DNA of 19,156 nt from a virus (Duplodnaviria; Heunggongvirae; Uroviricota; Caudoviricetes). The position numbers and the translations under genes are program-made. Location of the stretch: IMG/VR virus record IMGVR_UViG_2548876862_000001, positions 1 through 19,156 of that record; one strand, written 5' to 3'. This document shows positions 16,506 through 17,946 of this stretch, piece by piece (within the stretch, counting starts at the first letter, position 1; every line of letters starts with the position of its first letter). The notes below the pieces were generated by a model, which saw only the letters and a program-made list of their open reading frames with translations, made no database searches and was not told the origin of the DNA.

Positions 16506-17132
16506 ATGAATATTGTAGCAAAATCAGATTACAACTTCCACGGAGTTGAGTTGGTGCCCACCCGTGATATGCATGGTGTTTGGTTTACATCATCTAATAT
16601 TGCATCTGCACTTAAATATGCAAATAGCCGTGCAGTAACAATGATTTATAACAAGTATAGCGATGAGTTTAGCGCCGGGATGACTCAGGTACTCGAAGTG
16701 AGTACCTCAGGAAATTATCGCAAAAAAGTGCGAGTTTTCTCACTACGCGGTGCCCACCTAATCGCGATGTTTGCTCGCACTCCGGTAGCCAAAGAGTTCC
16801 GCCGCTGGGTGCTGGATATTTTGGATCGGCAGGCAGAATGCTCACCGATTGCAAAACAGTTCACTGACGAAGAGCTGGTTAATCTCTGCTACTTACAATT
16901 GTGGATGGAGAAGAGTCAACAAATGTGCAAACACATCTACCCAGGAATGAAGCAAATTGGTTCTGAGCTTTCAGGAAGAATTTACGATATTGCATATGAG
17001 ACTCGCTATATGTCAGAAGAAACCAAGAAATCACTTCTTCGTGAAATGAAGAATCTTGATACCAACAATTTTGTCGTAAAGAACGCTCAGCCAATGCTGA
17101 CAAAACTGCGCGGCGAGGAATGGATTCATTGA
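16506..17132 (+). CDS. Antirepressor-like protein with N-terminal Bro-N/AntA-type domain
   Basis: ATG 16506 follows AAGGA (16494-16498) by 7 nt. YNFHGVELVPTRDMHGVWFTSSNIASAL...VFSLRGAHLIAMFARTPVAKEFRRWVLDIL looks like Bro-N by eye. The track start TTG 16401 overlaps arc and is not preferred. Confidence 0.75.
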   Translation: MNIVAKSDYNFHGVELVPTRDMHGVWFTSSNIASALKYANSRAVTMIYNKYSDEFSAGMTQVLEVSTSGNYRKKVRVFSLRGAHLIAMFARTPVAKEFRRWVLDILDRQAECSPIAKQFTDEELVNLCYLQLWMEKSQQMCKHIYPGMKQIGSELSGRIYDIAYETRYMSEETKKSLLREMKNLDTNNFVVKNAQPMLTKLRGEEWIH

Positions 17133-17151
17133 TTGGTGCGCCGGACGGCGC

Positions 17152-17182
17152 AAAAAGAAAACCGCCAGTGTGCTGCTGGCGG
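17152..17182 (-). terminator. Rho-independent terminator on the minus strand
   Basis: CCGCCAG (17162-17168) pairs with CTGGCGG (17176-17182) around a 7-nt loop, followed at once on the minus strand by UUUUCUUUUU (plus 17152-17161). Confidence 0.5.
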
Positions 17183-17227
17183 CCTATGTCACACCCTTAC
17201 TACCACATAAGGAATGCCTAATGACTT
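17152..17227 (-). ncRNA. Candidate sar-like antisense RNA 2, complementary to the RBS and start of the second antirepressor gene
   Basis: Minus-strand GTGACA (plus 17256-17261), 17-bp spacer, extended -10 TGCTACATT (plus 17233-17241), facing the terminator at 17152-17182. Predicted length about 75 nt, covering the SD at 17209-17213 and ATG 17221. Confidence 0.35.
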
Positions 17228-17946
17228 TGAAGAATGTAGCAAACATCGGATCCGTTGTCACGGATAAAACCATTGACAGCCAAAGTCTTCTGATGATGGT
17301 TAATGAAGCTCGCAAGTTATGTGGAGAGCCATCAGTACGTAACAACAAATTCATCGAGAAAATTGAGGATGAATTGGAGGGCGAGACCTACACAAAAAGT
17401 GTAGGTCGGAAAAACGGGGCTGACATTGATGTTATCTCCATGACTATCAAGCAGGCGCTTCGTGTTGCTGCTCGCGAATCTAAAGCAGTTCGCCGAACAC
17501 TTGTAGACAAACTTGAAAGTATGCAGGAAGCACACATTAAAAGCGGTAAATCAGCGAGTGGACTTGTTGAGTATCGTCAAGCGCGAACATTGAAAATGAC
17601 GGTTGAAGCTGTTACCAATCTGTTCGATCTGATGCCAAATCTTGCGCCTGAGGCAAAGCAGACAGCGGCAGCAAGTATAATCAACCCGCTCGTTGGTTTT
17701 AATGCAATACCTCTTCCGGCAATAGAAGAGCATTACTACTCAGCAGGGGAGGTTGCAGAGCAGCTTGGAGTAACGGCCAACAAGATTGGTCGTATTGCTA
17801 ACGCAAACAACCTCAAAACTGAGCAGTACGGGAAGTTCTTCCTAGATAAATCGGCGCATTCCAGCAAACAGGTAGAGGCGTTCCGTTACAATTCTGAAGG
17901 CGTTAAAGCACTACAACACCTGCTACATGGCTCAAATGTGGCGTAA
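17221..17946 (+). CDS. Second antirepressor-like protein (Rha/ORF6N-like N-terminal region, KilAC/ANT-like C-terminal region, both by eye)
   Basis: ATG 17221 follows AAGGA (17209-17213) by 7 nt; 241 aa. C-terminal YYSAGEVAEQLGVTANKIGRIANANNLKTEQYGKFF resembles antirepressor C-terminal HTH-like domains. The track start GTG 17170 lies inside the upstream hairpin. Confidence 0.6.
   Translation: MTLKNVANIGSVVTDKTIDSQSLLMMVNEARKLCGEPSVRNNKFIEKIEDELEGETYTKSVGRKNGADIDVISMTIKQALRVAARESKAVRRTLVDKLESMQEAHIKSGKSASGLVEYRQARTLKMTVEAVTNLFDLMPNLAPEAKQTAAASIINPLVGFNAIPLPAIEEHYYSAGEVAEQLGVTANKIGRIANANNLKTEQYGKFFLDKSAHSSKQVEAFRYNSEGVKALQHLLHGSNVA

Follow-up and report, generated by a model that had tools for sequence, protein, structure and literature searches.

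Two tandem antirepressor-like genes, each preceded by a putative antisense element, in the ant slot of a P22-like prophage

We analyzed a stretch of viral DNA comprising 19,156 nucleotides (Caudoviricetes; IMG/VR record IMGVR_UViG_2548876862_000001, positions 1 to 19,156; hereafter the window), in which a first-pass annotation had pointed to two tandem antirepressor-like genes of different architectures at positions 16506-17946. Indeed, two open reading frames (ORFs) are present at these positions and they reside in the slot that harbors ant in phage P22. They are referred to throughout as gene 1 (16506-17132, plus strand, 208 amino acids [aa]) and gene 2 (17221-17946, plus strand, 241 aa). 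The window has the gene order of a P22-type late operon, i.e. Rha, terminase, portal, scaffold, coat and ejection protein gp16, the latter being 76% identical to the P22 protein. Between the gp16 gene and the tailspike gene follow sieA and a CI-like gene on the minus strand, an ORF of 57 aa, gene 1 and gene 2 on the plus strand, and an Mnt-like gene on the minus strand. The pair is thus located between gene 16/sieA and the tailspike gene, which is the location of immI in P22; the region between gene 16 and tailspike has been designated the 'ant moron' slot (Villafane et al. 2008, PMC2629481). The following features were identified:

14963-15457, minus strand: sieA, product 93% identical to P22 SieA
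15518-16159, minus strand: CI/C2-like repressor gene (Pfam HTH_3 and Peptidase_S24), divergent from the operon
16180-16209, plus strand: Pant-like promoter (promoter scan and overlapping inverted repeat)
16259-16432, plus strand: small first ORF of 57 aa, candidate Arc-like ribbon-helix-helix protein (weak Pfam matches)
16431-16520, minus strand: sar1, predicted antisense RNA gene (folding, covariance model, homology to P22 sar)
16506-17132, plus strand: gene 1, Bro-N and P22_AR_C (Pfam, BLASTP, phrog_245)
17153-17261, minus strand: sar2, candidate antisense RNA gene (promoter and terminator scans, conservation, covariation)
17221-17946, plus strand: gene 2, two modules, no Pfam coverage (phrog_1726, module searches, fold model)
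17965-17986, both strands: bidirectional intrinsic terminator (the scan finds a terminator on each strand), closing the operon and the convergent Mnt-like gene
17973-18230, minus strand: Mnt homologue, 45% identity to P22 Mnt (Pfam Arc)
from 18364: tailspike gene

Both ORFs are genuine conserved genes, because each start codon is preceded by the same Shine-Dalgarno sequence (AAGGAA, 6 nt 5' of the ATG), the NCBI Prokaryotic Genome Annotation Pipeline (PGAP) calls both genes identically in an Escherichia coli prophage of 99% identity, database relatives number 3648 for gene 1 and 1940 for gene 2, and substitutions pile up at third codon positions, e.g. 43/25/136 when gene 2 is compared with a Serratia homologue.

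The N-terminus of the gene 1 product (residues 23-105) matches the Bro-N family (PF02498; 41.7 bits at a Pfam gathering threshold of 25.6), as the first-pass annotation had suspected. The C-terminal half, which had been left unassigned there, carries a P22_AR_C domain (PF10548; residues 117-184, 53.4 bits, cut-off 22.4), which in BLASTP aligns to residues 206-274 of P22 Ant with 29% identity (E = 1e-9). According to Pfam, P22 Ant itself is composed of P22_AR_N (4.6e-44) and P22_AR_C; in gene 1, Bro-N occupies the N-terminus instead of P22_AR_N. As it carries both Bro-N and P22_AR_C, gene 1 can therefore be regarded as an Ant homologue with an exchanged N-domain, in which Bro-N has taken the place of P22_AR_N and P22_AR_C has been kept. 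In PHROGs, gene 1 is assigned to phrog_245 ('anti-repressor Ant', 4e-54). The AlphaFold2 model (predicted local distance difference test [pLDDT] 82) displays the Bro-N fold, behind which residues 121-181 form a long helical hairpin. A search of solved structures by sequence returned no relative of gene 1, the matches being spurious designed helical repeats, and Foldseek comparison of the gene 1 and gene 2 models with the PDB yielded nothing at E ≤ 0.001, merely local winged-helix similarities. A P22-like C-terminus behind a different N-terminus is also found in Ant of Phi24B, which is needed for full induction; when it is deleted, the late promoter is up-regulated less well upon induction (PMC3064807). 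By analogy, it is this homology to the Phi24B and P22 proteins that supports an antirepressor-type role of P22_AR_C proteins. Domain searches, which had been suggested as a check, assigned no non-antirepressor function to gene 1 or gene 2.

For gene 2, a Rha/ORF6N-like N-terminus fused to a KilAC/ANT-like C-terminus had been proposed. Membership in these families was not borne out: when gene 2 and 29 homologues were searched against Pfam, including Phage_pRha (PF09669), ORF6N (PF10543) and ANT/KilAC (PF03374), no family match was obtained at E ≤ 10, and what Pfam detected in the gene 2 family were weak HTH_31 and HTH_17 matches at residues 170-206. A search of NCBIfam returned nothing, PADLOC made no defence assignment beyond a weak HTH match, no solved structure was found by sequence, and no sequence similarity between gene 1 and gene 2 is detectable. 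The proposal did hold with respect to architecture and predicted fold. An exhaustive search of 1.84 billion cluster representatives revealed two separable modules in gene 2. Proteins sharing only residues ~105-235 (n = 55) carry Bro-N (17), ORF6N (10), Rha (8), KilA-N (8), AntA (6) or P22_AR_N (2) at their N-termini, and four of the 17 proteins sharing only residues ~14-105 possess an ANT/KilAC C-terminus. At locus L033, a protein composed of the gene 2 N-module and ANT even occupies the same gene slot as gene 2. Since its C-module follows Bro-N, ORF6N, Rha, KilA-N, AntA and P22_AR_N domains and its N-module precedes ANT/KilAC, gene 2 resembles, by module partners and predicted fold, the members of the Bro/KilA/Rha/Ant-like shuffling network.

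Within the gene 2 product, the N-module (~14-107) is followed by a helical middle part and a C-terminal winged helix of the MerR/HTH_17 type (~170-236). Profile comparison of the N-module with Rha gave a weak, full-length match (probability 16%, P = 1.6e-3; for scale, Bro-N and Rha match with a probability of 47%). The C-module gave nothing in comparison with ANT (probability 0.3%, with a thin ANT profile of five sequences) or with P22_AR_C. In the AlphaFold2 model, the N-module has a secondary-structure order identical to that of Bro-N in gene 1, both modelled N-modules showing a winged-helix-like beta-alpha-alpha-beta-beta-alpha order, and a helix-turn-helix with a beta-hairpin forms the end of the protein. 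In BFVD, this model is best matched by phage proteins named antirepressor, KilAC, KilA or Rha (E = 1e-8 to 1e-4), and PHROGs places gene 2 in phrog_1726 ('anti-repressor', 4e-101), which is a propagated name.

On the minus strand, the spacer preceding gene 1 has the potential to form two hairpins followed by a U-run (folding z -6.4; P22 sar, -5.3). An extended -10 element (TGcTACAAT, 16512-16520) lies within codons 3-5 of gene 1, from which transcription is predicted to start at ~16505. The 5' hairpin of the predicted RNA, here designated sar1, would span the Shine-Dalgarno sequence and AUG of gene 1, and the terminator hairpin (16440-16474) is followed by the U-run. The -10 hexamer is found at +7 to +12 of gene 1, which is exactly the position of the P22 Psar element TGcTATACT in ant, and sar1 aligns to the Psar/sar region of P22. 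A covariance model (R1), built from 21 sar1-type leaders, scores the window element with 75 bits and P22 sar with 59.8 bits. R1 detected 40 sites in 59 loci, up to three per locus, and for nearly all of them an ORF belonging to the domain network has its 5' end no more than ~30 nt away. In the sar1 alignment, 82% of the cells are paired as compared to 37-49% in slid controls, and 80 cells contain compensatory, i.e. double-sided changes as compared to 19-30 in the controls; this alignment was fitted to the covariance model and hence leans towards the modelled structure. RNAalifold applied to a plain MAFFT alignment recovered the terminator only partly. By sequence, layout and promoter position, we regard sar1 as a homologue of P22 sar: at the sequence level, it extends across the ribosome-binding site of the ant-like gene with its promoter inside the start of this gene, as in P22 immI.

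Up to three sar1-type elements per locus are present in Xenorhabdus (loci L022, L024 and L025), where they precede genes encoding KilA-N plus the gene 2 C-module, ORF6N and P22_AR_N, one of them being inverted in L024. Therefore, multi-effector modules can exceed two genes.

A second candidate element, sar2, precedes gene 2 on the minus strand. Its -35 element (GTGACA) is at 17256-17261 and its extended -10 element reads TGcTACATT (hexamer at 17233-17238), predicting a start at ~17226. The predicted RNA covers the AUG (17221) and the Shine-Dalgarno sequence (17209-17214) of gene 2 and ends at a terminator stem (17159-17185) followed by a U-run, as detected by a terminator scan. Across loci, the -10 element conforms to TGcTA(C/A)A(T/G)T, and in 20 of 24 loci the hexamer is equidistant from the gene 2 start codon. 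In these 20 loci, the antisense TG is invariant while the overlapping sense codon varies between GCA, TCA and ACA (Ala/Ser/Thr), and the Val codon in the -35 element is always GTC. Because TG and GTC are fixed while the sense codon varies, these data point to a constraint acting on the promoter hexamers at the DNA level. In a plain MAFFT alignment, 96% of the terminator helix is paired, 15 cells show compensatory changes, and the G-U pairs can form solely in the minus-strand RNA. A covariance model of this element (R2) has 29 matches, all of them just 5' of gene-2-type genes, including phage phiKp_30, which possesses gene 2 and an Mnt-like gene without gene 1. The idea that sar2 is a diverged copy of sar1 was rejected, as R1 misses sar2 even when filters are switched off. 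Thus, sar2 is a candidate antisense element of a sequence family distinct from sar1. In the searchable literature, whose coverage is incomplete, we found neither a second sar-like RNA nor an assay of this module.

Upstream of the small first ORF, a promoter scan identified a Pant-like promoter at 16181-16209 (TTGACT, spacer of 17 nt, AATAAT; 10 of 12 matches). It is overlapped by an inverted repeat at 16180-16206 (ATTGACTCA, 9 nt, TGAGTGAAT), which we consider a candidate operator, and a TTGAC(A/T) element recurs in the ~99-bp intergenic region at other loci with an S24-type repressor. The divergent gene at 15518-16159, whose product matches HTH_3 (9e-13) and Peptidase_S24 (1.3e-12) in Pfam, holds the position of mnt in P22. 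An alignment that included the C2 repressor of phage JEP4 showed that the catalytic Ser is replaced by Ala (GEAM; G-x-S-M in LexA and lambda CI) while the Lys is kept, and that Ala-Gly is missing from the aligned cleavage site, i.e. the hallmarks of LexA/CI self-cleavage are incomplete. Self-cleavage is therefore probably absent and the degenerate S24 domain may serve solely for dimerisation. Homologues elsewhere are mixed in this respect, five retaining the Ser and two having Ala together with Arg in place of Lys. An ant operon that is SOS-inducible through RecA-stimulated self-cleavage of S24 was rejected for the window on account of the Ala at the Ser position and the missing Ala-Gly site. 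The repressor shares 26% identity with C2, the immC repressor of JEP4. In the E. coli prophage, immC is located >20 kb from the module.

The 57-aa ORF matches phrog_10182 (function unknown) over its full length. A small ORF is found at this position in most of the related loci, and many of these ORFs weakly match the 57-aa ORF or the Mnt-like protein of the window in BLAST. The Mnt homologue at the other end of the module shares 45% identity with P22 Mnt across 73 aa (E = 8e-23; Pfam Arc, 8e-15) and probably comprises 85 aa starting at 18230, while the PGAP call has 95 aa starting at 18260. In P22 it is the Mnt gene that is divergent from Pant; in the window, the HTH_3/S24 gene is divergent and the Mnt homologue is convergent and located downstream. 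The Mnt homologue adjoins the tailspike gene (gap 18231-18363), an arrangement reminiscent of the minimal morons of phages L and ST64T, which contain mnt only, and an Mnt-like gene also adjoins gene 2 in Klebsiella phage phiKp_30.

Among the 29 species-representative loci with enough flanking sequence, a gene encoding Bro-N or P22_AR_N is located directly upstream of the gene-2-type gene in 23, with a spacer of 45-91 nt; in one of these (L006) the upstream gene encodes genuine P22_AR_N plus P22_AR_C. Nearly all of the 23 loci contain, upstream and on the opposite strand, an ORF matching either the Mnt-like or the CI-like repressor of the window, and a small ORF usually precedes the first effector. 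At loci L016 and L019, a protein with the gene 2 C-module is the sole effector in the 'ant slot' of the module. At least 80% of the module is covered in 26 of 5426 complete E. coli genomes, and nucleotide identity is 98.8% to E. coli HS and 97.7% to phage JEP4 (MT740315). The tandem layout is thus a conserved cassette, which is common in enterobacterial prophages and ordinary for this phage class.

This distribution also bears on the idea that gene 2 is an accessory 'moron' gene outside repressor control, serving e.g. superinfection exclusion or anti-defence, which we regard as very unlikely. The interval between gene 16 and tailspike is an insertion hot spot, in which ten types were found in sixteen genomes (PMC2629481); sieA adjoins the module, and in phiKp_30 gene 2 and the Mnt-like gene are present in another genomic context, all of which would suit such a cargo gene. 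However, PADLOC detected no defence match beyond the weak HTH, both modules of gene 2 recombine only with partners of the Bro/KilA/Rha/Ant type, several modules have a protein with its C-module as the sole occupant of the ant slot, and gene 2 appears to be under sar-like control.

Closely related modules revealed exchange of single domains inside genes. JEP4 and the window are >97% identical throughout except for ~230 bp (16545-16776) encoding Bro-N, which are ~45% identical, indicating a cassette that arose by recombination of a single domain within gene 1. Similarly, gene 2 of phiKp_30 and gene 2 of the window are 72% identical in the N-module and 99% in the C-module. Since a divergent Bro-N in JEP4 and a divergent N-module in phiKp_30 are embedded in near-identical flanks, recombination exchanges N-domains and not the C-terminal half of gene 1. 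If specificity is borne by any one of the modules, the exchange pattern points to the N-domains. The first-pass annotation had considered two antirepressors whose target repressors differ, the C-terminal half of gene 1 being a candidate specificity module. The absence of detectable similarity between gene 1 and gene 2 makes different targets plausible, and for Salmonella, antirepressors acting in trans on several prophages are documented (PMC3121763). We nevertheless consider this combined explanation unlikely, as the C-terminal half of gene 1 is the conserved P22_AR_C, which is 99% identical between near-identical modules in which Bro-N has been replaced, and gene 2 behaves likewise in the comparison with phiKp_30.

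Some further observations were made on relatives of the module. Downstream of gene 2 and before the Mnt-like gene, JEP4 and several E. coli prophages contain an extra hypothetical ORF of ~210 bp encoding 73 aa (at 5503-5724 of the JEP4 locus, L001), which is without counterpart in the window (~17948). SieA is encoded in the window and missing from JEP4 and from the module of the 99% identical E. coli prophage, so that the module has a mosaic left boundary. In its late genes, too, this E. coli prophage differs from the window. Far upstream of the module, the Rha gene (Phage_pRha; 233-793, plus strand) precedes the small terminase gene as in P22 and represents a third member of the Bro/Rha/KilA class within 19 kb, outside immI. 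Close relatives of the module were also retrieved from records titled Chryseobacterium sp. (L012, CACSKA010000002.1), Bacillota metagenome-assembled genome (L038) and Komagataeibacter (L055); it is possible that these assemblies are contaminated or mislabelled. In the Shiga toxin (Stx) phage PA2 (L059; 3348-3917 and 5262-5939), the 'anti-repressor' gp14 of 189 aa shares ~60% identity with the gene 2 C-module and is not matched by Pfam, and an ORF6N 'anti-repressor', gp10, is encoded ~1.3 kb from gp14 in Stx2a phages.

Genes, domains, layout, conservation and conserved antisense signals are what we observe at this locus. On this basis we consider it probable that the pair is the effector half of an immI-type secondary-immunity ('ant moron') module of a P22-like (Lederbergvirus) prophage and that its products would have antirepressor action. 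In this scenario, the candidate Arc-like gene, gene 1 and gene 2 would be transcribed as one operon from the Pant-like promoter, and the divergent CI-like repressor presumably silences this operon in the lysogen. Each effector would come with its own cis-antisense RNA gene, having the promoter in the first codons of the effector and the terminator in the upstream spacer. By analogy to P22 sar, each antisense RNA may pair with the ribosome-binding site and start codon and block translation. Gene 1 would most likely bind and inactivate CI/C2-type repressors, and gene 2 would most likely target this switch too, be it as another antirepressor or by action of its C-terminal winged helix on DNA. That either protein binds a repressor, which regulator governs the promoter, and that the antisense RNAs are produced and affect translation are steps that we infer.

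Several observations weigh against this interpretation. In PHROGs, UniProt and BFVD, the label 'antirepressor' has been passed on by name propagation. What is known of Rha and Roi, the latter having a Rha plus ANT architecture according to Pfam, is DNA binding or an influence on lytic growth when the host is defective in IHF, not antirepressor activity. As for the Arc-like label of the 57-aa ORF, the Pfam matches to ParD_like (8e-4) and Arc (0.011) are both below the cut-offs, and BLAST detects no similarity to P22 Arc. Regarding the antisense elements, sar1 has a weak -35 element and escaped the promoter scan; no significant Rfam family was obtained for sar1 or sar2, the best hit being a chance-level symR-like match (E = 0.76); and the N-terminal peptide of gene 2 is partly conserved, so that constraints on protein and on the sar2 promoter are not fully separable. 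Finally, gene 2 was modelled by AlphaFold2 with moderate quality (pLDDT 71, predicted template modelling score 0.35), and what the model shows at the C-terminus resembles a DNA-binding winged helix of the MerR/excisionase type, with HTH_17 being weakly matched in 8 of 30 gene-2-type sequences.

These latter features lead to the main rival explanation, in which one of the proteins (above all gene 2) or both would be regulators of the Rha/Roi/KilA type that bind DNA sequence-specifically and employ their winged helices at phage or host promoters, e.g. to modulate lytic growth, tailspike expression or host functions. It is favored by the HTH_17 matches and the winged-helix-like order of both modelled N-modules, by Foldseek searches of the PDB, in which the last 65 aa of gene 2 superpose on DNA-binding domains of the MerR type (RacA, BldC and NmlR), and by the presence of Rha (233-793) and Roi-type proteins outside immI in the same phage type. 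However, the Foldseek E-values against the PDB are non-significant (0.14-0.6; for RacA/BldC 0.14-0.4 at a probability of 0.9-1.0). Moreover, the C-domain of gene 1 is common to Ant of P22 and of Phi24B with their antirepressor-type phenotypes (PMC3064807), and the location of both genes in the ant slot, together with control of the sar type, is in keeping with a product dangerous to the lysogen. Taken together, we judge the DNA-binding explanation somewhat unlikely and favor the immI-type effector pair.

A more speculative version, for which we see little likelihood at present, combines both views: the gene 2 family would provide a DNA-binding partner of Ant at immunity operators or lytic promoters and, along with the undescribed sar2 class, would establish a two-step, separately gated anti-immunity switch in many P22-like prophages of enterobacteria. 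Equally doubtful is the corresponding view of gene 2 itself, which would then consist of a Rha/Bro-like N-module, a helical linker and a MerR/excisionase-like winged helix and would not be a classical antirepressor.

The data suggest two effector genes, occasionally three, as a common natural form of immI among prophages of Escherichia, Citrobacter, Serratia, Pantoea, Proteus, Xenorhabdus and further Enterobacterales. If confirmed, the antisense elements would represent a directly testable family of ~75-nt phage antisense RNAs, a protein family of >1,900 members without Pfam model would gain a concrete functional hypothesis, and natural domain swaps such as the Bro-N of JEP4 would provide ready-made experiments on the target range of antirepressors. 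Target range bears on cross-induction among prophages in polylysogens, including Stx phages with the gene 2 C-module. The same module is already contained in published genomes, and its interest, which we consider moderate, lies in the conserved cassette with two effectors, the gene 2 family that Pfam does not model, and the second sar-like family; descriptions of the former two were likewise not found in the searchable literature, with the same incomplete coverage.

Among known systems, the superfamily in which Bro-N, KilA-N, Rha, ORF6N or AntA are combined with ANT (KilAC) or P22_AR_C is the one of which gene 1 and gene 2 both are N- plus C-module combinations, with the difference that the modules of gene 2 are without Pfam model. 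Ant of the Stx phage Phi24B, whose C-terminus is 82% identical to P22 Ant over 104 residues (PMC3064807), is encoded at another genomic location in a lambdoid phage, and its likeness to gene 1 is through the P22_AR_C family. In the E. coli HS prophage, the ant moron 'HS-1' is the same module, an IS3-family transposase being annotated within the matched HS stretch; this moron was drawn by Villafane et al. (2008) with 'putative antirepressor genes' and an apparent lack of arc (PMC2629481). Escherichia phage JEP4 contains the same module as well, with another Bro-N domain, the extra 73-aa ORF and without sieA; there, the pair is annotated as 'Rha protein' and 'KilA protein', names that Pfam models do not back.

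The immI region of P22 is the textbook case of an antirepressor that is restrained by two repressors and an antisense RNA. As the first-pass annotation had noted, P22 possesses a single ant gene. The module of the window resembles P22 immI (mnt - Pant - arc - sar - ant) in its slot, the rightward promoter-like site, the small first gene, the sar homologue with a promoter at effector codons 3-5 and a terminator reaching the end of the small ORF, an effector with P22_AR_C and the presence of an Mnt homologue. It departs from P22 immI in several respects: the first ORF cannot be recognised as Arc, Bro-N stands in for the N-domain of Ant, the place of Mnt as divergent regulator is taken by a CI-like HTH/S24 protein whose catalytic Ser position is occupied by Ala, and the Mnt homologue is located downstream in convergent orientation. 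Above all, the window contains two effector genes and, in front of the second one, a candidate antisense element of a separate sequence family.

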